DNA from: a phage
Length of the DNA: 64,000 bases
Assembly: GCA_012441205.1 (NCBI GenBank)
Contig: GCA_012441205.1_4705.1
Reading direction: 5' to 3' (one strand)
Part shown: one piece after another, positions 4,675 through 61,527 of the stretch
Layout: each line of letters starts with the position of its first letter
Numbering within the stretch: the stretch's first letter is position 1
Notes under the pieces: generated by a model
Told to the model about the DNA's origin: nothing
Seen by the model: only the letters and a program-made list of their open reading frames with translations
The model's database searches: none
Translations under genes and position numbers: made by a program

Positions 4675-5222
4675 CTTGTAATCCTTAATTTACCTGAATG
4701 AATTATCGTTGATGGGTCCACGACGCGACCGTATTTCGCGTTACGTAATACACGATGCCCAAAGAAGTCAGCGGTTTCCAAAACAACCGTGTAACAACCC
4801 AGCTGATGTTGATGTCCCCAAAACCGTTCAATGGGAATCCAGCAGGGCGACATGCCTTTGTGTCGCCAATCCGTAACACAGCCGAATTCAGCAAACTGTT
4901 CAGTAAACCACTCGTCAATGTCGGTATCCGTAAAGAGAAACACGTGGTTTTTAACCAGATAAGCGAACCCAGGATAAAAAAGCTGAGGGTCATCTGGGTC
5001 ACGGAGATAAACACGAAGTTTGTCTAGCGTACCCTCGACAACGATTGTATCGGGTAATCCTGGCGGCGTGAACCGAAGTTGGAAGTTATCCTCGTTTGCC
5101 GAGGCGTTAACCAAATACCCCAGTTGAAGGGGTCGATGCAATTCGAAAAGGTTAAACGTTAATGCATATTCGATATACTCTAATCCTATATTCATGTCTG
5201 ACCTATGTGGTATGGACGGCAT
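4671..5222 (-). CDS. hypothetical protein (183 aa)
   Basis: ATG at 5222 with GGAAGG about 8 nt upstream; first gene of the minus-strand block. Confidence 0.5.
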   Translation of the reverse strand: MPSIPHRSDMNIGLEYIEYALTFNLFELHRPLQLGYLVNASANEDNFQLRFTPPGLPDTIVVEGTLDKLRVYLRDPDDPQLFYPGFAYLVKNHVFLFTDTDIDEWFTEQFAEFGCVTDWRHKGMSPCWIPIERFWGHQHQLGCYTVVLETADFFGHRVLRNAKYGRVVDPSTIIHSGKLRITR

Positions 5223-5333
5223 TGCATTGCCTTCCGCGAGTGTAATCAGGAAGGTAATGTAGGTTTATTTTAATCTCCATTTCGCGATGATATGACAGTC
5301 TTTATTACGTTTACCATCTGAGGGAGCATGCTC

Positions 5334-9441: not shown

Positions 9442-11175
9442 TTATGCGACTTTACTAATAACGACTGCTGTGATACCGAGATGTAGGTCGACGCCATTCT
9501 GTACTTTAATCCAGCGGATATACAGGTTAGCGTTATCCTGTCCCGTACCACCTGGGACGTTATTGTTCCTATTCCATTGCGAGATTTCGAAACGTTTCTG
9601 CACGTTAGGACCAACCATGATTTCAAAGTGGGTCGGTTCTGGTGCTTTCGATTCCGTTTTCTCAAGATAGAGCGGATGTGTCGCGTAGTAAAGTTGGTTC
9701 AACCATTCACCCAGATCTGAGTGTTTGTTCGTCAAGTCAACATACGCGTTACCAGCAACATCGTAAGTAAACAACGCTTTCGTGTTACGACCGTACACAT
9801 CCGTTGTCGTCGGCGTTGTTTGCGAGCTGAACGTTACTGTCCAGTAATCACCGGATGTTGCCGAACCTGCTTGCAATAGCGTCATTCGAATAGTCTGCGT
9901 ATGACGTACGCGTTTGTAAACGGTAGGATCGACTTCATCTAACCAGATGTTGTACGCAAATTCCTGAGGTTGTCCGTATTTCTTCGGATTAAACTCAGGG
10001 CTGTTCAGCGCCAATTGTACTTTATCGGTTACGTTGTAGTAACGTTCACGGTCGACGTTGTACAACCAGAACACCAGCTCGTATCCCACAGCATCAGATA
10101 CCCATTGCGGATAGCAGAACAGTTTAACACTGTAAGCCCCTTTCGCTTCTTTAGAAACGACGGTATAAGGCACACTGATGTGTTTCACCGCTCCTGGTAA
10201 CGCGTAGGATGTGTCCTCATCGTCGTCCAGGTAGTAGTGTAACGCCAGCGGATGTTTGCTGTTGATGACCTGGGACGTGAAGACGTTAAGGCCGTCCAAC
10301 ACAACCTTGTTACCAGTAACCGGCCAATGTTTAATGGAACCATCACTGTAAGTGACTTCAGCCTGAAGGTCGACGGAATCCAGGTTGACGTTGATCGGTA
10401 ACTCAAGCAGTTTGGTATCGCTGCTGCTCAGCCACGTTGATTTCAGTCGTACCCCGTCTTCCAGAATATATTTAATACCCTGGTCTGGGGTGCGTACATA
10501 GTCAGTGATACGAACGATCATGCGTTTCATGGATAGCGGCTGCGGACCGTCACCATAACCTACTACCATCACCTGCTCAAAATCTTCGACAGGCTTAATG
10601 CAGTAACCTTCACGAGGTGCCCAGATAGCTTTATTCGTTCCGTCTTTGTAAGCGATAAGCTGACACGGAATGAAATCGCTGATCTTATTCCCGCTGTTGT
10701 CATACATCGCACTGATGATTTCGCCTTTGGCGCTGATATCAGAACCGCGGAACACTGCGATACGTCGAATATCCGAGCCATGCAGATGGAAACGACGATC
10801 GATGTTCATTGTAGCAGGGATCGTGTTCGTATTAATCAATACACGCCATGTATCGTACGACCACGTCGGGTCAATACCTTCAAAGGTTGTCGTCCCATCG
10901 CCCTGACCATCGAACGGAGCAGACAGCTGACCGATAAGTTTAAGGGTACTTAGTTTTGTGCGATCGTCTACGGCGATAACACGGTACACCGCATTCGTAT
11001 CCCAGTCTTCAACTTTATCGTCCACGTTGGGGACGTAAAGTTTCCAGTCTTCTTCAACGCCATTATAGATCTCTTTATACGCATAGGTGGTATAGCGTCT
11101 GTCGAGATCCTGAATAGCGAGTTTATCCGGATGCTGTTGTGCATAAAGCACCGGATTGGTAATCTCTCTTCCCAT
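9442..11175 (-). CDS. hypothetical protein, possibly virion structural
   Basis: ORF track starts at a GTG (11181) that overlaps the upstream stop (GTGA); the ATG at 11175 has AAAGGTGAG upstream. About 577 aa, no recognisable motif; function guessed only from neighbourhood with the terminase. Confidence 0.45.
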   Translation of the reverse strand: MGREITNPVLYAQQHPDKLAIQDLDRRYTTYAYKEIYNGVEEDWKLYVPNVDDKVEDWDTNAVYRVIAVDDRTKLSTLKLIGQLSAPFDGQGDGTTTFEGIDPTWSYDTWRVLINTNTIPATMNIDRRFHLHGSDIRRIAVFRGSDISAKGEIISAMYDNSGNKISDFIPCQLIAYKDGTNKAIWAPREGYCIKPVEDFEQVMVVGYGDGPQPLSMKRMIVRITDYVRTPDQGIKYILEDGVRLKSTWLSSSDTKLLELPINVNLDSVDLQAEVTYSDGSIKHWPVTGNKVVLDGLNVFTSQVINSKHPLALHYYLDDDEDTSYALPGAVKHISVPYTVVSKEAKGAYSVKLFCYPQWVSDAVGYELVFWLYNVDRERYYNVTDKVQLALNSPEFNPKKYGQPQEFAYNIWLDEVDPTVYKRVRHTQTIRMTLLQAGSATSGDYWTVTFSSQTTPTTTDVYGRNTKALFTYDVAGNAYVDLTNKHSDLGEWLNQLYYATHPLYLEKTESKAPEPTHFEIMVGPNVQKRFEISQWNRNNNVPGGTGQDNANLYIRWIKVQNGVDLHLGITAVVISKVA

Positions 11176-21461: not shown

Positions 21462-21539
21462 AACCCCTTTATAAGCAACTGAATGAAAAAAGCGTTACAT
21501 TCCCGCTTTTACGTCAGAAGGTGACGCGTAAGCGTTATA

Positions 21540-22983: not shown

Positions 22984-24507
22984 TTACACCTCGCTAATCT
23001 GGATAACGTAAAGCTGCTGGGCCACGTAATCGGTGGTCAGATGCATCGTTGCGATGGTCGCTGCTTCGAACACCGTGAGTTCAGGACGTTCACGCATAAT
23101 CAAATCGATCTCATCGATGAGACGGTTAACGCCTTGAGCGTCTTCGTGATGCATGGTTTTCACGTACAGCGTACGGAAATACTGCTGGAAGTTAGCTACG
23201 TCGGTATCGGTAAGGGTAGCAACTTCACCACGTACGATTTCCATAACCTTCTTACGGGTATCTTCATCGAGGTCCACTGTAATCAGGTCAGCAAATACGC
23301 CCTGCAATGCCAACGCGTATGCACGTAAGCGGTTTGCGGCCTGCTGACTGGCTTTCATGTTGATGTAGTTACGGTAATGCTGCATGAAGCCTGCACCGTT
23401 AGCCAACAGCTCATCTTTACTGATGAGTTCACGTTCTAACAGGACAGCTGCGGTCAGTGCTTCCGGCGAACCACCTTCTTGCAGATAACCCATGTAGACA
23501 TCTGCGTTAACGAAAATCGTCATCGTTGACGCATCTTCAGCACGTTGAATCTGAGAAGCCGACGGTGCAGAAAGAATCAGCTCACCACGCTCCATACGCA
23601 GGATACGATCACGACCGACGCGGGCCATCCCGTTGATCGCCGCAGCGCGAGCTTGTTGCATTTTAGCGCGGTAGTTTTCAAGCATCATGTCGTTGCCGTC
23701 CTGGATATCTTCCAGCAGGTTAACGGCCCACATATAGCAGAGGAATGCAGGAGTTGCCGCAGCGCGGGAACCGTGGAATGCAACGTTATCGCTATCCGGA
23801 TATGTAATCAGATAAGCGGTGTTGTTCGAAGAAGGAGCGGAACCACGGAAGAAATAGTTGTAGATGTCTTCCAGTGCCTGATCGCTCATCCCTTCCGTTG
23901 CTTGCTGTACAAAACGATCCAGGTTTTCATTACCGGTATACAGCAACGTACGCAGCTTATCACCGGTGATAAACGCAAGCTTTCCGGTTGGAGTGAAATC
24001 GTTATTAATCGAAATCAAGCCATTGAGGTCATAATCGCTAACTAAGGCCTGGTACTCTTCGGAGTTATAAAACTCAGGATAGTAACTCAGACTTACTGTC
24101 GGGATCAGTTTCGGTGCCAGGATGATCGAATCGATGCGTTTTTCCAGTTCCGGGTACAGCGCACGGCATTTCGGCAGGATGGTATTACGCGCCAACTCTT
24201 TGGCATACACCACTTTTTCCACCACGTCTTGAACTGCGGTCTGTAAAACTTCATCGTGGATATAAACCTCGCGTTCGCTGGCAGGTGCTACAACGCCATC
24301 TTCGGTTTCATCAAGTGTTTCAGCAACAACCATACGTTCAGCACTAAGCTGCACCAACGCATCCGCGTCTTCCGGCGGCTGGTTCCAGTGCATGGTTTCA
24401 CAAACCGCGGCTAACGGCGTGCCCGGAATGGCTGCGACGATTTGGTTACGTTTGATAAACCCTTCGACAATAGGCTCAACAGCATAAACGGTTTTATTGG
24501 TGATCAT
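22984..24507 (-). CDS. hypothetical protein (507 aa)
   Basis: Long ORF; start overlaps the stop of the upstream 77-aa gene. Confidence 0.5.
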   Translation of the reverse strand: MITNKTVYAVEPIVEGFIKRNQIVAAIPGTPLAAVCETMHWNQPPEDADALVQLSAERMVVAETLDETEDGVVAPASEREVYIHDEVLQTAVQDVVEKVVYAKELARNTILPKCRALYPELEKRIDSIILAPKLIPTVSLSYYPEFYNSEEYQALVSDYDLNGLISINNDFTPTGKLAFITGDKLRTLLYTGNENLDRFVQQATEGMSDQALEDIYNYFFRGSAPSSNNTAYLITYPDSDNVAFHGSRAAATPAFLCYMWAVNLLEDIQDGNDMMLENYRAKMQQARAAAINGMARVGRDRILRMERGELILSAPSASQIQRAEDASTMTIFVNADVYMGYLQEGGSPEALTAAVLLERELISKDELLANGAGFMQHYRNYINMKASQQAANRLRAYALALQGVFADLITVDLDEDTRKKVMEIVRGEVATLTDTDVANFQQYFRTLYVKTMHHEDAQGVNRLIDEIDLIMRERPELTVFEAATIATMHLTTDYVAQQLYVIQISEV

Positions 24508-24740
24508 TACTGCGCTCCCTCCAACGCATTACTACCTACGGGTTCTTTGGTTTCCAGACGGCTGTTTAAGCGCGCAGCAACCGCATCTTCCAATCCCAAC
24601 GGCATAACCTTTTTGTTCACGTCAGGATCGGCGGCATCATTACCAACGGTTTGACGTACGACCTCAGCAACCAACGTTACCGCGTTCGTCAGCGCAACAA
24701 AGCTCGCTGCCCGAGCCGTGTTAAGTTGTTCTTGGTTCAT
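24507..24740 (-). CDS. hypothetical small protein (77 aa)
   Basis: Short ORF preceded by a terminator and a 20-bp perfect palindrome. Confidence 0.4.
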   Translation of the reverse strand: MNQEQLNTARAASFVALTNAVTLVAEVVRQTVGNDAADPDVNKKVMPLGLEDAVAARLNSRLETKEPVGSNALEGAQ

Positions 24741-24771
24741 TCACTTTTCCTTTTAATGTCAGAGCATCGCA

Positions 24772-24791
24772 TTCTTGACGTACGTCAAGAA
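24772..24791. promoter_or_regulatory. 20-bp perfect palindrome, putative operator or regulatory hairpin
   Basis: TTCTTGACGTACGTCAAGAA equals its own reverse complement; lies about 35 nt upstream of the start of gene 24507..24740 and just downstream of the beta-gene terminator. Confidence 0.4.
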
Positions 24792-24815
24792 GGTACTGCG
24801 TTCAGCGAAATAAAC

Positions 24816-24841
24816 GAGCAGGGGCATGAAGCCCCCTGCTC
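24816..24841 (-). terminator. intrinsic terminator after the RNAP beta-like gene
   Basis: 10-bp stem GAGCAGGGGC / GCCCCTGCTC with loop; on the minus strand it begins right after the TAA stop and is followed by GTTTATTTCGC. Confidence 0.6.
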
Positions 24842-27800
24842 TTATTTGGCGTCGTTAAAATAAATATCAACAGCTCGTTCCGTTGCGTAGAGGAGACCAA
24901 GATTCACAGTCCCAACCACTTCCGGTGAACCGATGATACGGTTAGCGATACTGGTGCCACTGAAGATAGCATCAAGGGTGTGCCCGTCTTCGGTTTTGTT
25001 CACACCATGACCCACGGAAGAGACAACGGATTTCGCTTGAGCTGCGAAGGTACCTTTATCGCCCATCCCCGCACCAAGGTCGTAACGCATGAAAATACGG
25101 ATTGCGATCTGGTTCTCGCCTAACGGATTACCGTCTATTCTCACGTTACTGTTATTGATACGCCCCGTAGTTGCTTCGTTGAGTTTCAGTTCCTTAACGC
25201 GTTTAGCTCGCGCTTTATCTGCATCACCGACGAGCGCCGCCATGGTTTCACTCATATCCTCAATCTGAGCGCGGTACAGCACATCGATCTGTACAACTTC
25301 ACCATGAACGTCAGCACGTGGGTTATACTGACTCATACGACGTAATGCTTCAACGGCTTCCTGACTCTCATCACTCAGATCGGTCGCAATCGGTTCTTCC
25401 AGTGTTGCAAGGATCGTTCGTGGTTCAACATGATCGCCGATTTTCACGAGACCACGAATGTTGAGATGGGCGTCAACGATGAGCGTACGGCTCTTAATCG
25501 ATGGTGTTACGAGACGATCGGCAAGATTGTCGAAGATATACGAACTGTCCTCGTGAGTCTCTGGAATATCCAGAATACCGACAAGAGACAGAACACCTGC
25601 GCGCCAAACAACCTGACCTGGGTTCCACCAATCGCGTTTAAAATAAAGACGATGGAAGACCACCACATCCTGATCCTTAACGCGATCCCCGACTTTATAA
25701 TCGGTAATGAGATCGTGAGGATAATACTTACCTGGTCCTTTCCCGATTATCGTACCGAGCTGGAAAACCTCTTCCCCTAACTCTGGATCGTCGTATTGTA
25801 TCGTCAGCGCAGTTTTGGTGACCTTCTTAACAACACCGTCACCTTGGGCGGCAGCTGCAAAGAGTTTACCAACACGATGCGCGATGACAGTCTCACCGCC
25901 GGTGCGCCACGGTTGTACATCGTAACCCTCAGCGGCAATCATGCGGTTGTGTTGGATCCCGACGAAGACCAGACGTTTTCCATCATCACGGTCTACAGCC
26001 GGAACAGCTAACGCTGACGTACTCATTACCGATGAGATGCCGTCTGTCTTTTCATCGAATGGTCGTGTTTCACCATACACCGACACGATATTAGCATTAG
26101 GTGCAAGGTAAGCAGAGATACCCACATCCCCACTATCTTTCGTACCCTCTGACACAATACCAACATCGGACTTGTCGTATTCACGATCACGTGCGCGTCG
26201 AAGCGATGTCTTTGAACGACCCCCGATACCGGTCATCGTTGCTTCTTCACCCTGCTTGATATCCAGCATCGGGTTGGTTTCATCGATCACGATGGACGCG
26301 CTGTCGTCGAGAATTTGGTTCCAGACACTTACCGGACTGATTGAGATTTTCTGGCGGTTTCCTTGACTGCTGTTCTCATTCTGACGAATAGCGCCAACCA
26401 GATCCTTATACACCAATTCAGCGAACTTATCGTACGTTTTAAAACGTTGGTAGTTCACATCGTTCGTGTTAGGTGCCCAATCATCCAGAAGCAGTTCAAC
26501 AGCACGCAGTAACAACATGGCGAAATCGGTAGGTTCTCCCATGTTCTGTAGCAACGTACGGCTTACCGGATCAACGAAAAGACGCTCCATGAGTTCAAGT
26601 TCGCGTAAATGGCGAACCTTAAGTCCGGCACCATCGACAACGTTAAAATAGATATCTCGATTGTCGAAAGCACCGCGAGCGTAACCGATGTAGTTACGGT
26701 ACTCGTTAAATCCGCCCAGCAACAACGTCGTCATGCGATCGTCTTTACTGAAGATCAAACTTTCGTCATCAAAGCTCACCGCGAATTCATCGGGTGCTAG
26801 ACCCATACGAGAACCGCGAGGTACCGTACGATAGTTCGCTTTAAGATGTTCTAATAACGGGGTAAGTCCACCCAGATAACTTAGAACAACACCAACCGGA
26901 ATACGTACACCCATGAATTCAAGATCGGCGGCTTCGATCGGCATCTTAGCCGCATTGATACCGAAGAAATCAGGGAACGTCCCTACAGGTGTTGGTGTTT
27001 GTCCTGACTGACAGATATAGAGCTGATTGCGTTTATCGATTGCTAAGAATTCACCCAGCGTGTTACGCGCAAACGTCAGGAGCCCTTCGGCTAACTGTTC
27101 GTTGAACCGATCTTCCCCGATGAACTCCGGTAGCGTTTTTATATCGAGACGTATATCCCAATCAGCAAATTGGATTTGGGTATAGTTGCGTGCAAGCACA
27201 GCGAAGTAATACGGGACTTTGACGGCCGGATCAAAGACGTTACCACGTTTTAACGTGGTTAAGGGTGAGGACTTATCGTAATACATCGCTGTAAGTTGGC
27301 GTGTTAACCAACGACCGGCGTTATTAACGACACGCTCTGAACGTTTAACAAACACCTTACCGTAGGCGGTACTCAACGCAACTTCGGATGATGATACCTT
27401 TCTAATAGGTTTATCAACACGTTGTTTACGCATCCGGTATTTGATGCCGTTAACGACATAAATGCCGTCCTTACGAACCTTCGGCAACATCACCGGGAAC
27501 GTGGTTGGGACACCGCCTACAGGGGCCAGTTTAATCGTGATGACTTGATAATCCCCCATCACGTCAACAACATCTTCAACTTTATATCCCGTGACAGGGT
27601 AACCTGCCTGTTGTACGGCAACAACAGCGGCTGCGATGTCCTTTTGCATCACGTGTTCAACGTAATGTTTATCCCACACCGCAAGCGTCGATTTACATAG
27701 GCTCTTATCGACGATAACATCCGCTTCCGGCATAACCTTTGCTGGCGCTAATTTCGCGGCTTTTGGTTTAACTTCAACATACTCAGCAAGTGTTAATCCA

Positions 27801-29188
27801 GAACCGTCGGGTGCTTCGATTTCATGGATGGCGTCAGCATTACGCATCGCTGCTTTATATTGGACGCCGCTTAACTGACCCGCATCAGCCAGATCGCTCG
27901 CGCGTACCAACACCGCATCCGATAACGACTGAATATATTCACCGTGCGTTTTTGGTAACGTTGCCGCGTCAAAGACATCAACCTTTTCTTCTTCGGTATC
28001 GTCGGTAACGACTTCGAAGAGATCGTCGGTAATGTCCTGATCTTCATCAGGTTGAAAATCCGGCTGTACTTCTACCCCGGGTACTTCACGGACATCTTCG
28101 AACGAGCGTTCTACAATGGCGTTCCACGCATCAGCGTCATCGTCTTCATCCGACCCACCAACCAACTCCGCTTCTAACTCATCGGAATCAAGAACAGTGG
28201 CCAGATCCTCACCGTTAGGAAGCACGACGTCGCGATCATCGTACTCTGCATCCGGGCTGTCCGCAAGAATATCTCGCTCTTGACGAAGAACCTGTTCCTC
28301 TTCTTGTTTCTGTTCTTCTTCATTCGCGCTCTGCGACCATAGACGTGTTACCGCCATCATCCAACGACGCTGGAAGGTTTCGAGTGTCGTTTTATCGAGT
28401 TCTTCCCCTTCCTTTACAAGCCCGGTACGCCATTCTTCCAACAGGCCGAGATTCAGCGTAAAGAAGTACACACCGTCTGTAAATACAACGTTAAGCTTAT
28501 CCAGCGTGGCTCTGTCTAACGAAGCCATTGTGCTGTTCTCACGATCGGTTCCCAACCAGCGGAAGAAGTCAAAGAACGACAGCTCCTCCGGCGTGGCGAA
28601 ATTCATGAGGTTGTTACGGGTCGGTGCCTGTTGCGTGGTACGCATCAACGAAATCTTCGGCAATGTTGACGGTATACGGAACAACAAAAAGTGTTGGCGA
28701 TCGCTTTGCTGCGCGATTTCGTTGGCTTTCGACCAAATTGTTTTACGTACGTTGAACCATTCATCATACCAACGGGTGAGCGTTGGACGATAGATGTACA
28801 TGTGGTTAAGATGTGCGTAGTTAGCAACGATCTGAGCGTTGATGTTTTTCTCCACCGTACTTAGATCGGTAACCAAACGAAAACGACGATGTGACGCACG
28901 ATAATCCAATTTCGCTCGTGGGAGCTGGAATCGCTGATCACGTCGAGGTGCACCCTGTTTGGTTGCGAGATCATCAGCAAACGAAATCCATAGTTGAGCA
29001 CTTTCTTTACTCAACATGTATTCGTTTTCTGGAGGACCTATCAATGAAGGATCCGTTGCGGTGTAATGATAGACAGCATAACGTGGCAGCTGCAATAGCT
29101 GCACTAAACGTAATCTCGGTGACAATAGCTCTTGGTATCGTCTGACGCCAAACTGTCGGTAGTAATCAAGGTATTTAAGTTTTGCCAT
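24842..29188 (-). CDS. multisubunit RNA polymerase beta-like subunit (divergent)
   Basis: 1448 aa. GIGGRSK...DVGIVSEGTKDSGDVGI parallels the bacterial beta region GPGGLTRER...GRVCPIETPEGPNIGL, and GMGDKGTFAAQAKS...DAIFSGTSIANRIIG parallels GDKMAGRHGNKGVIS...DIVLNPLGVPSRMNIGQ (E. coli beta recalled from memory). Contains a long acidic insertion. GGAG RBS 8 nt before the ATG at 29188. Confidence 0.65.
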   Translation of the reverse strand: MAKLKYLDYYRQFGVRRYQELLSPRLRLVQLLQLPRYAVYHYTATDPSLIGPPENEYMLSKESAQLWISFADDLATKQGAPRRDQRFQLPRAKLDYRASHRRFRLVTDLSTVEKNINAQIVANYAHLNHMYIYRPTLTRWYDEWFNVRKTIWSKANEIAQQSDRQHFLLFRIPSTLPKISLMRTTQQAPTRNNLMNFATPEELSFFDFFRWLGTDRENSTMASLDRATLDKLNVVFTDGVYFFTLNLGLLEEWRTGLVKEGEELDKTTLETFQRRWMMAVTRLWSQSANEEEQKQEEEQVLRQERDILADSPDAEYDDRDVVLPNGEDLATVLDSDELEAELVGGSDEDDDADAWNAIVERSFEDVREVPGVEVQPDFQPDEDQDITDDLFEVVTDDTEEEKVDVFDAATLPKTHGEYIQSLSDAVLVRASDLADAGQLSGVQYKAAMRNADAIHEIEAPDGSGLTLAEYVEVKPKAAKLAPAKVMPEADVIVDKSLCKSTLAVWDKHYVEHVMQKDIAAAVVAVQQAGYPVTGYKVEDVVDVMGDYQVITIKLAPVGGVPTTFPVMLPKVRKDGIYVVNGIKYRMRKQRVDKPIRKVSSSEVALSTAYGKVFVKRSERVVNNAGRWLTRQLTAMYYDKSSPLTTLKRGNVFDPAVKVPYYFAVLARNYTQIQFADWDIRLDIKTLPEFIGEDRFNEQLAEGLLTFARNTLGEFLAIDKRNQLYICQSGQTPTPVGTFPDFFGINAAKMPIEAADLEFMGVRIPVGVVLSYLGGLTPLLEHLKANYRTVPRGSRMGLAPDEFAVSFDDESLIFSKDDRMTTLLLGGFNEYRNYIGYARGAFDNRDIYFNVVDGAGLKVRHLRELELMERLFVDPVSRTLLQNMGEPTDFAMLLLRAVELLLDDWAPNTNDVNYQRFKTYDKFAELVYKDLVGAIRQNENSSQGNRQKISISPVSVWNQILDDSASIVIDETNPMLDIKQGEEATMTGIGGRSKTSLRRARDREYDKSDVGIVSEGTKDSGDVGISAYLAPNANIVSVYGETRPFDEKTDGISSVMSTSALAVPAVDRDDGKRLVFVGIQHNRMIAAEGYDVQPWRTGGETVIAHRVGKLFAAAAQGDGVVKKVTKTALTIQYDDPELGEEVFQLGTIIGKGPGKYYPHDLITDYKVGDRVKDQDVVVFHRLYFKRDWWNPGQVVWRAGVLSLVGILDIPETHEDSSYIFDNLADRLVTPSIKSRTLIVDAHLNIRGLVKIGDHVEPRTILATLEEPIATDLSDESQEAVEALRRMSQYNPRADVHGEVVQIDVLYRAQIEDMSETMAALVGDADKARAKRVKELKLNEATTGRINNSNVRIDGNPLGENQIAIRIFMRYDLGAGMGDKGTFAAQAKSVVSSVGHGVNKTEDGHTLDAIFSGTSIANRIIGSPEVVGTVNLGLLYATERAVDIYFNDAK

Positions 29189-44152: not shown

Positions 44153-44241
44153 GGCATCACCTATGTATCATTCTTGCAGGCATCAATGAAGCCATCACAA
44201 GAAGGTAACGTTATACGTCGCCTTCATGACTGTCATCATGA

Positions 44242-44254
44242 AGGTAATATAGTC
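44242..44254 (-). promoter_or_regulatory. putative phage promoter motif (GGACTATATTACC on minus strand)
   Basis: Plus-strand GGTAATATAGTCC in a divergent intergenic region; same motif as at 19556 and 57368. Confidence 0.4.
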
Positions 44255-54802: not shown

Positions 54803-54834
54803 CCCTCCTCCTTCCCTGTTGGGTTGGAGGAGGG
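54803..54834. terminator. hairpin terminator (conserved family)
   Basis: CCCTCCTCC-TTCCCTGTTGGGTT-GGAGGAGGG followed by TTATGCTGTC. Confidence 0.55.
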
Positions 54835-54848
54835 TTATGCTGTCAAGC

Positions 54849-54864
54849 AAAAAAAAAAAAAAAA
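54849..54864. repeat. 16-nt poly(A)/poly(T) homopolymer tract
   Basis: A16 on the plus strand between two hairpins in a convergent intergenic region; reads as T16 downstream of the minus-strand gene ending at 54910. Confidence 0.8.
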
Positions 54865-56578: not shown

Positions 56579-56679
56579 TGTCATCTCCCCTACATACGCA
56601 TCTTGAAGATCGGTTAAAAACAACAAAAGAAAAAACGATATAAAGCAAGGTCCTCTGATATCAGAGGACCTTGGATCAA

Positions 56680-59652: not shown

Positions 59653-60879
59653 CTACTTCGTTTTCGCCGTTATCGGCTGCGATACTGTAATCTCGACCCG
59701 ATCGACATCGGTACGTTTAACGATGATAAGGCTGCGTTCATCACCGAATGGTTCTGAGATCTTACAAGCCTCTTTAAGATTTTCGAGAATCGTGCCATGG
59801 GGTTCAAACACCGCAAAACCGGAACTAGCGTCGATTCTTATTAAATATACACGCACATTGTTTACGGTAATGGTGTCATCCGTCTTGAACCCACAGCAGG
59901 AGGGTAGACAGAACTGACCATTAACGCAATTAGCTAAGTATGCCTCACCACCGAACATTTCTATTAACGTCACCGGTTTAAATGTTTTCTCTGGGAAAGC
60001 ATTATTAAGAATATCGTTTCCATTCACAAACCAGATCGTTACTTTATCTTCGGAATACGCTAGTCTGTATGGTTGGGTTGCGGACGCCTGCGCTTTATGC
60101 TGGTTAAATAACTTTGATTTTGTCGCAATCACAGCACGACCTTGGGCGTCAAAGTACAGAACTTCATACCCAACACATCCGATAAACACGCGACGGTTAT
60201 TAAGTTCCGGAATTCTGACTACTAACGCATTACCATCTTCCGTCGGTGTAATACCACGTAGGATGATAGATTCGTTGTTCAATGTTGAGTTGCTCACGAT
60301 GACGCTTCGCATTACCGCTGGCGACACTATTTCATCTGCTGCAGGTTCAAGTTGCTCCGCTGTTACAGTCACGGATCTGTCTTCCTTTTCAACTGGCCAG
60401 TTGAAAAGGATTGTTTTATTAAGACAAACAATTGGGGTAATTTCGCCGATACTCCGTATCTTGACTGAGGGGCAATTGCACACATACGGAACAAAAACAT
60501 CAATATCGTTGGTCGCTTCTTCAAGCATGCTAGCATACGCCATTGCTTCGGGACGATCGGTGAGATGAATAACAGCATAGACGATATCGTCTTTTAACCA
60601 CGCACGTTTCACTCGTCCTATAACACGATTGATGTCTACAATAACTCTCTGAGCTTTCATCTCCCATTTTACTGCATCAGTACCACCCGCAACCACGTTC
60701 GGTTTATCCGTGTTTACACGATGAAGGAAACTATTGATTATTTCCTCATCGATCTGGATATCCTTTCTCGCAAAATTCAACAACGGAATAACGAACTCAT
60801 TGTTACCGCACTTCTCTGCTCCGCGAATGATAGGAGTACACTTCTTGTTCTCATCTGATCCCCAGATAACTTTAGTCAT
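59653..60879 (-). CDS. hypothetical protein (408 aa)
   Basis: Start set to the ATG at 60879 (GAAGGAAA RBS); Cys-rich in places; no nuclease or phosphoesterase motif recognised. Confidence 0.45.
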   Translation of the reverse strand: MTKVIWGSDENKKCTPIIRGAEKCGNNEFVIPLLNFARKDIQIDEEIINSFLHRVNTDKPNVVAGGTDAVKWEMKAQRVIVDINRVIGRVKRAWLKDDIVYAVIHLTDRPEAMAYASMLEEATNDIDVFVPYVCNCPSVKIRSIGEITPIVCLNKTILFNWPVEKEDRSVTVTAEQLEPAADEIVSPAVMRSVIVSNSTLNNESIILRGITPTEDGNALVVRIPELNNRRVFIGCVGYEVLYFDAQGRAVIATKSKLFNQHKAQASATQPYRLAYSEDKVTIWFVNGNDILNNAFPEKTFKPVTLIEMFGGEAYLANCVNGQFCLPSCCGFKTDDTITVNNVRVYLIRIDASSGFAVFEPHGTILENLKEACKISEPFGDERSLIIVKRTDVDRVEITVSQPITAKTK

Positions 60880-60912
60880 TTTCTGTTTCCTTCTTGGGTT
60901 TTGCACAAGTTT

Positions 60913-61527
60913 CTAACGGCGTTTTGTACCGACCTTCCCATTTCGATGGTCATCAAGAATACGCCATTCTTCGAACAGGAGTTCGGCTGCGAAATAACCT
61001 ACAGCGATGCTGTCTATCGCATGCTCATCAAGATTCGCTAACACAACACCGTTTCTGGGTGTGATGTTCATGAGGTTCAACACTTTCTGGCGAACATCGT
61101 CCTTACCAACACGGGACGTCATAATCCCAACAGCGCGTTTTGCGCTTCGGTTATCAACCCCTAAGAAAGATACCGTAGGATCAAAATCGATAACCGTTGT
61201 ATGAATCGCTGAAAACAGCTCGCTGAGCGCCATACCGCTTTGCTTGAAACGACCGATGAATGGCGTCTCACAAGCGACCGCTTGCGGCTGGTACTCTTGC
61301 AATAACGTTGTCAGTGAACGACGGTGTTCTTGGATACGTGCGGCACGATTACCGTATCCAAGCGCAATATCGCCATCGGGATCATATCGACGTGAAGCGT
61401 GCCATGTCCCTGCATACAGCAGTTCAATATCTTCGACACGCACGTCCAAACGTAGTAACGACGCACCGAGTGTATCGGTGCCAGGGTCGATTGCCAGAAT
61501 ATCGTAAGCGTATTCTGGTGGGATCAT
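60913..61527 (-). CDS. RuvC-like Holliday junction resolvase
   Basis: Start set to the ATG at 61527 (ATGA overlap with the upstream stop). ILAIDPGTDTLGASL, QPQAVACETPF, KRAVGIMTSRVGKDDV and DEHAIDSIAVGYF parallel RuvC ILGIDPGSRVTGYGV, QPDYFAIEQVF, KQTVVGIGSAEKSQV and ADAADALAIAITH. Confidence 0.8.
   Translation of the reverse strand: MIPPEYAYDILAIDPGTDTLGASLLRLDVRVEDIELLYAGTWHASRRYDPDGDIALGYGNRAARIQEHRRSLTTLLQEYQPQAVACETPFIGRFKQSGMALSELFSAIHTTVIDFDPTVSFLGVDNRSAKRAVGIMTSRVGKDDVRQKVLNLMNITPRNGVVLANLDEHAIDSIAVGYFAAELLFEEWRILDDHRNGKVGTKRR

Follow-up and report, generated by a model that had tools for sequence, protein, structure and literature searches.

A 20-nt palindrome upstream of a virion-protein gene in a Goslar-like jumbo phage is the stem-loop at the core of one member of a small family of dispersed intergenic hairpins

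Among enterobacteria, REP/BIME repeats are intergenic hairpins of ~40 nt that occur in hundreds of copies and have been proposed to protect RNA ends. T4-type phages carry a repeated intergenic stem-loop, the promoter-early stem-loop (PeSL; PMC2839356, PMC4122927), in which the hairpin lies upstream of a sigma-70-type −35/−10 promoter followed by a Shine-Dalgarno sequence and a start codon (PMC4122927). Phages of the phiKZ type share a conserved intrinsic terminator motif composed of a hairpin and YTTATKYYGT (PMC10914365), and template switching at perfect hairpins is a documented cause of loop inversion (PMC8794818). Here, we analyzed a perfect palindrome located in a 64,000-nt stretch of phage DNA (contig GCA_012441205.1_4705.1; hereafter, the window), which an earlier note had proposed to be the operator of a dimeric DNA-binding protein or, alternatively, a 10-bp RNA stem in a leader. 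This palindrome makes up the central stem-loop of one member of a small hairpin-repeat family scattered through intergenic regions of Goslar-like phages.

The window shares 96–97% identity with Escherichia phage vB_EcoM_Goslar, a jumbo phage of E. coli that forms a nucleus, and crosses the ends of the linear Goslar record at positions 54810–54864 (Goslar 237307 to 1), as a circularly permuted genome would. Near-complete Goslar-like genomes (contigs of 235–248 kb) are also present within NCBI assemblies labelled as E. coli, Shigella, or Salmonella isolates (loci L072, L076, L082, L088, L090, L093, L097, L099), and assembly GCA_020395325.1 differs from the window by 0.1% across 3.2 kb. Complete RefSeq E. 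coli genomes and PLSDB plasmids gave no Goslar-like match. All genes around the palindrome lie on the minus strand. The homologue of Goslar gp207, a virion RNA polymerase subunit of 1448 aa (24842–29188, minus strand; stop codon at 24842–24844), is followed by an intrinsic terminator (24806–24841, minus strand) consisting of an 11-bp GC-rich hairpin (24841–24816) with a TTCAT loop and then GTTTATTTCG. This terminator, which is annotated as such in Goslar too, fits the phiKZ-type motif of a hairpin and YTTATKYYGT. The palindrome is located 24 nt past it and 31 nt ahead of the ATG (24740) of the gp208 homologue, a 77-aa virion protein (24507–24740, minus strand) with a ribosome binding site, AAAGGAAAAG, at ~24753–24744; the stop of this gene overlaps the start of the 507-aa gp209 homologue. 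The placement given in the earlier note, between the terminator of the upstream gene and the start of the 77-aa gene, is correct when read on the minus strand. Both gp208 and gp209 are packaged in virions at >200 copies per virion, and gp207 and gp210 are among the virion RNA polymerase subunits (bioRxiv 10.64898/2026.04.21.720040). Because the spacer divides the low-copy gp207 and its terminator from the high-copy gp208 and gp209, it is expected to be transcribed late. Separately, the window carries an uninterrupted 1448-aa polymerase subunit gene, which in many relatives is called as two pieces (1069 aa plus 366, 375, or 407 aa; loci L083, L084, L086–L088, L092, L093, L095–L099, L101); in some of these genomes, the stretch between the pieces has a 403-aa ORF with faint or weak I-TevI DNA-binding/NUMOD1 matches, suggestive of an intron or homing-endonuclease insertion that varies among genomes.

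Sequence, position, and symmetry of the palindrome were all confirmed in the window: the exact 20-mer TTCTTGACGTACGTCAAGAA occupies positions 24772–24791, and on the minus strand, i.e. the gene strand, it reads as a 5′ arm TTCTTGAC (24791–24784), a central GTAC (24783–24780), and a 3′ arm GTCAAGAA (24779–24772). As a single strand, it is predicted to form a 7–8-bp stem closed by a 4-nt loop (−8.5 kcal/mol, RNA fold), a 10-bp stem being impossible. The alternative of an RNA stem in the leader is thus supported as to the hairpin but not as to its proposed length, and single-stranded DNA could fold into this hairpin just as well. The stem is AT-rich, with G–C pairs at three of eight positions, and is followed by TGCGATGC / TGCGATGCTC; there is no TTAT or T run 3′ of the stem, and a terminator scan does not report the palindrome. 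Rfam 15 covariance models yielded no match at E ≤ 1 across window positions 24300–25300. The earlier note had suggested looking for further copies of the 20-mer, and none was found when up to 3 mismatches were allowed in the window or up to 4 in the Goslar genome (237 kb). Across IMG/VR, the exact 14-mer core was detected in 60 unrelated contigs and in no Goslar-like one. A 10-nt partial copy, CGTACGTCAA on the gene strand, lies ~120 nt downstream within the 77-aa gene (24651–24660); it is kept in the Goslar clade, altered in the sister clade defined below, and probably due to chance.

The window contains 3 perfect ungapped palindromes whose arms reach 10 nt or more, against 0.055 expected per dinucleotide shuffle. 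Two perfect 28-bp palindromes were noted elsewhere in the window. One, TCCTTTTCAACTGGCCAGTTGAAAAGGA (60383–60410), is located inside a 417-aa ORF (59653–60906, minus strand), within the sole segment of the window (~60357–60886) not aligned to Goslar by megablast. The other, CAAGGTCCTCTGATATCAGAGGACCTTG (56646–56673), directly 3′ of a stop codon and with CTTTATATCGTTTTTTC behind it, belongs to the conserved hairpin and TTAT class of terminators and is annotated accordingly in Goslar.

The spacer was next compared across 49 non-redundant Goslar-clade genomes, retrieved through the 77-aa protein, its sequence variants, and gp210. The two arms, TTCTTGAC and GTCAAGAA, are unchanged in 49 of 49 genomes. 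The centre is GTAC in 29 of these (window included), GTAT in 16, and GCAT, GCAC, ATGC, or ATAC in one genome each; the Goslar reference version of the palindrome is TTCTTGACGTATGTCAAGAA, with centre GTAT. Two of the rare variants are reverse complements of others found in their relatives: ATGC, the reverse complement of GCAT, is found in a close relative of the GCAT genome, and ATAC, the reverse complement of GTAT, belongs to a group whose nine other members are all GTAT. The centre therefore behaves as an unconstrained, occasionally inverted hairpin loop, and all six variants yield the same stem-loop at −8.5 kcal/mol. All four central sites are polymorphic, which makes this the most variable spot of the region, compared to only 2–8% of sites across the surrounding ~700 nt. 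The perfect symmetry described in the earlier note is real in the window, but it depends on this polymorphic centre and reflects no more than the most frequent loop allele. Its origin as a mutation private to the window, considered on the basis of four genomes, was rejected because GTAC is the major allele. Marker combinations show recombination or homoplasy, which stands in the way of polarising the loop states on a tree.

The stretch around the palindrome is itself a low-diversity island (window ~24440–25140) that extends from the final 300 nt of gp207 through the spacer and gp208 into the beginning of gp209. Across 22 genomes, 2–8% of sites are polymorphic inside this island vs. 13–20% around it, and third codon positions vary at 5 of 77 codons in gp208, vs. 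201 of 466 and 172 of 500 in neighbouring genes (34–43%). A recent sweep, strong codon selection, or a nucleotide-level constraint could each have produced this pattern. Since the whole ~700-nt stretch is uniform, the invariant arms of the palindrome are on their own no evidence of selection; what stands out clearly is the hypervariable centre.

Related units were recovered by a search around the conserved flank TACCTTC, and share an outer stem and flanks summarized by the consensus TACC-TTCT[stem-loop-stem]AGAA-TGCGA(T/A)GCT. Goslar contains four clear copies along with degenerate ones, for a load of 4–6 per genome. Written as 5′ flank, arm, loop, arm, and 3′ flank, copy 1 (Goslar 9972–10012, plus strand) reads TACC TTCTGAACC CGT GGTTCAGAA TGCGAAGCT; copy 2 (60946–60986, plus strand), TACC TTCTGAA CCGTTGA TTCAGAA GTCAAAAG; copy 3 (160883–160923, plus strand), TACC TTCTGAATC GAA GACTCAGAA TGCGATGCT; and copy 4, the palindrome (207182–207142, minus strand), TACC TTCTTGAC GTAT GTCAAGAA TGCGATGCT. 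Copies 1 and 4 are co-directional with their downstream gene, and copies 2 and 3 run antisense to the genes on both sides. Among copies, the inner stem varies through two-sided changes (GC to UA, AU to GC, and CG to UA, in either direction), i.e. compensatory changes that preserve pairing. Across the family alignment, which comprises only four distinct copies, 95% of cells are paired, compared to 28–51% when the partner is slid by 1–3 columns.

A covariance model built on the repeat copies (R1) was then searched against Goslar and the window. The full unit containing the palindrome (24760–24800, minus strand; CGCAG-TACC-[hairpin]-TGCGATGCTCTG) scores 49.6 bits, although as a training sequence. 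The best match outside the training set, at 44212–44251 (minus strand; 25–26 bits, E = 1.6e-5 to 4e-5), lies upstream of the gp200 homologue and comprises an early-type promoter, TATATTACC, followed by the hairpin CCTTCATGA-N4-TCATGAAGG-CGA; the loop of this hairpin is GACA in the window vs. GACT in Goslar. Other matches correspond to a unit located between gp206 and gp207, where a group I intron is annotated (Goslar 211856–211894; 21 bits, E = 7e-4), to another early-type promoter (weak match), and to a degenerate relative in the gp211/gp212 spacer (21489–21528, minus strand; weak match, 11.4 bits, E = 2). The latter shares the 14-mer ACCTTCTTGACGTA with the palindrome in Goslar, and has lost one T in the window and in two other genomes. 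The exact pattern TACCTTCT-N8-20-AGAATGCGA was found 3, 3, and 2 times in the three Goslar-like IMG/VR contigs, where 3.6e-4 matches are expected per genome (2 × 237,307 × 13 / 4^17); the 46 matches found elsewhere in 2.9 million contigs are each single and stemless.

Loop inversions and short indels recur among these hairpins. At copy 1, two genomes have the loop ACG where Goslar has CGT; at copy 3, one genome carries the inner 9 nt as an exact inversion (ATCGAAGAC/GTCTTCGAT); and the loop of the gp207 terminator is either GTTAT or its reverse complement ATAAC in the sister clade (L092–L105; window equivalent 24825–24831). The terminator-loop flip is recurrent or recombined, as the two states do not track the nearby marker AAC/AAT. 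Three indels removing family members were identified: 41 nt at the palindrome, flanked by the 2-nt direct repeat TA; ~46 nt at the gp211/gp212 relative, with an 8-nt flanking repeat (TAACGCTT) in Goslar, a unit also missing in the sister clade; and 49 nt at the intron-region unit (Goslar 211854–211902; flanking repeat TCAGC, 5 nt), which is absent from the window at ~29472/29473. Transposon-type insertion was rejected because these flanking repeats are unequal (2, 8, and 5 nt), and replication slippage across the hairpin would fit better than transposition. In natural populations, these hairpins are thus hot spots of loop inversion and short deletion.

The 41-nt indel separates two clades. In the sister clade, defined by the substitutions G69R/H and S70N in the 77-aa protein and sampled here with at least 16 genomes, the segment ACCTTCTTGACGTACGTCAAGAATGCGATGCTCTGACATTA (ACCTTC…CATTA; 24754–24794, minus strand), bordered by TA..TA microhomology, is missing. 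In every genome encoding a 77-aa protein of the P0003 or P0009 type, the spacer lacks this segment and measures 60 nt; the terminator and the ribosome binding site are retained, and no replacement for the hairpin is visible. This clade is successful and common in nature, its 77-aa protein being recorded on ~60 contigs. Absence of the hairpin from at least 16 genomes indicates that the element is dispensable, and any effect it has can then only be modulatory.

Given these constraints, our leading interpretation, which we hold with about even confidence, is that the palindrome is a hairpin in the transcribed leader of gp208–gp209 that would do no more than modulate RNA stability or processing. 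The palindrome would act through pairing of its 8-nt arms around the GTAC loop, rather than as a sequence read by a dimeric protein. Its likely site of action would be the leader or intercistronic RNA of a late gp208–gp209 message, where a stem-loop of −8.5 kcal/mol could protect an RNA end or slow decay. At the DNA level, the inverted repeat evidently folds during replication, which accounts for both flipped loops and deletions between short flanking direct repeats. Two of the four clear copies are antisense to their flanking genes, which is as compatible with a DNA-level or purely historical repeat as it is with an RNA element.

Nearly as likely as this leader hairpin is a harmless relic. 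Under this explanation, which we consider possible though tentative, the palindrome is a functionless, neutral or selfish leftover of a duplicated intergenic sequence that persists by doing no harm and is currently being lost through hairpin-stimulated deletions. Its absence from the sister clade, despite the success of these phages, is as expected of such a leftover, and so are the loss of the intron-region copy in the window, the 1-nt deletion in the gp211/gp212 copy of the window and two other genomes, the presence of copies in both orientations, and the three indels with direct repeats of differing lengths, as slippage deletions would leave. Against a relic, the flanks TACC and TGCGA(T/A)GCT are kept among copies and the stems are maintained via compensatory changes; identity of the arms in 49 genomes points in the same direction, although local diversity is low anyway.

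The similarity of the repeat to early promoters raises another, rather unlikely possibility, namely that the palindrome and its left side form the start-site region and 5′ hairpin of a promoter akin to the early ones of the virion RNA polymerase, driving strong late expression of gp208–gp209. A promoter would be expected here because abundant virion proteins come after a terminator. Enrichment of k-mers in Goslar intergenic regions revealed only the early-type motif TTTCACGnCTAYATTACCTnnnTGA and the terminator motif. The left side of the palindrome, TACCTTCTTGAC, ranks 25th among 474,540 positions when scored with the downstream half of the early-promoter matrix, so that the start region TACCTnnnTGA is present with the hairpin next to it. 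Genuine TAYATTACC promoters constitute the best family-model matches outside the training set and carry a hairpin at the same place; such motifs directly followed by a hairpin are found at window positions 44212–44251 and 5220–5261, and about half of the ~13 intergenic early-type sites of Goslar have a stable hairpin within their first 45 nt. Together, the match to the downstream half of the motif and the hairpins trailing true early promoters suggest that the repeat is related to an early-promoter start region and hairpin. However, the TAYATTAC core is missing at the palindrome (core score −10.5, rank 24,588, vs. at least 13.7 for known sites), two family copies oppose their neighbouring genes, and the sister clade expresses the gp208–gp209 genes without the segment. 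The k-mer analysis of Goslar intergenic regions also revealed no third enriched motif that would contain the palindrome.

Still less probable in our view is a more specialized role, in which the units would represent a phage-borne miniature REP- or MITE-like hairpin cassette, or else a signal for a phage RNA-binding or export factor, with loop flips and gain or loss of units tuning neighbouring genes. Similarly, we consider it very unlikely that a dimeric DNA-binding protein, either phage-encoded or a host FNR/CRP-type factor, binds both arms to regulate gp208, the reading favoured by the earlier note. The perfect dyad symmetry in the window and the 8+8 arms present in 49 of 49 genomes would suit an operator, and conserved arms around a free 4-nt spacer are also typical of a protein site with two half-sites. 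Host FNR/CRP-type sites have the core TTGA-N6-TCAA, which the palindrome resembles. Yet the half-site is found nowhere else in 237 kb, the related copies alter both arms while preserving pairing, the ACGT/GTAC centre is hypervariable, and the sister clade lacks the element altogether. Nor is there a sigma-70-type promoter for such a protein to repress: the spacer contains none, and TTGACG, evaluated as a −35 box, was rejected since neither strand has a −10 box at the right spacing. Such phages transcribe their genes with their own polymerases within a protein shell that excludes most host proteins (PMC7598289), which makes a host FNR-type site implausible. Uniqueness and lack of conservation in related phages were among the things that the earlier note itself had named as counting against its proposal, and on these grounds the idea largely fails; the palindrome is probably not a repressor binding site.

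Finally, a phiKZ-type late promoter, in which the non-virion RNA polymerase would start within the loop at the TATG of the Goslar centre, is highly improbable: TATG is the phiKZ late consensus (−3 to +1), with all four bases required in vitro (PMC7598289), and Goslar reads GACGTATGTCAAG, with TATGTCAAG common to the region upstream of gp215, but TATG is present in no more than 16 of 49 genomes and TACG in 29, the window among them, and the recurrent sites with a hairpin and TTTATGCYG(T) behind this idea correspond to the published phiKZ-like terminator motif (PMC10914365).

As a candidate operator, then, the palindrome matters little, the element being dispensable and the regulatory reading unsupported. 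For annotation of Goslar-like genomes, a hairpin followed by TTTATG is best read as the terminator motif and not as a TATG promoter, and the features described here should aid the design of edits and reporters around the gp207–gp212 block of virion genes.

Compared with described systems, the repeat most resembles REP/BIME elements and the PeSL of T4-type phages. As in REP/BIME elements, as these are generally described, the units are short hairpins of ~40 nt, strictly intergenic and often beside terminators, found in both orientations, with a conserved short sequence 5′ of the stem and presence or absence among close relatives, and RNA-end protection is a proposed role for both. They differ by their number, 4–6 copies instead of hundreds, by their location on a lytic phage genome, and by having no known sequence similarity to REP; the Goslar annotation includes no RAYT-type transposase. 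With the T4 PeSL, the repeat shares an intergenic stem-loop associated with a promoter-like sequence, a location at indel sites between close relatives (here 41, ~46, and 49 nt at three members), and the presence of some copies beside genuine early promoters. Unlike in PeSL, however, the hairpin is downstream of the promoter-like piece and the spacer has no sigma-70 promoter, half of the clear copies are antisense, and it is the element itself, not an adjacent gene, that is lost in the indels. The phiKZ-like terminator motif (hairpin and TTATKYYGT; PMC10914365) provides an intergenic hairpin in the same spacer, with loop flips in both, but the palindrome has an AT-rich stem followed by TGCGATGC without TTAT or a T run. 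Template-switch, or quasi-palindrome, mutation (PMC8794818) would likewise replace a loop by its exact reverse complement while maintaining perfect stems, yet it is a mutational process and not a function, and accounts for the variable centre but not for the existence of the repeat. This kind of element is already known, from REP-like repeats and T4 PeSL cassettes, whose defining features the Goslar-like units share only in part; Goslar-like phages hold a small intergenic hairpin-repeat family of their own, apparently related to the early-promoter start region.
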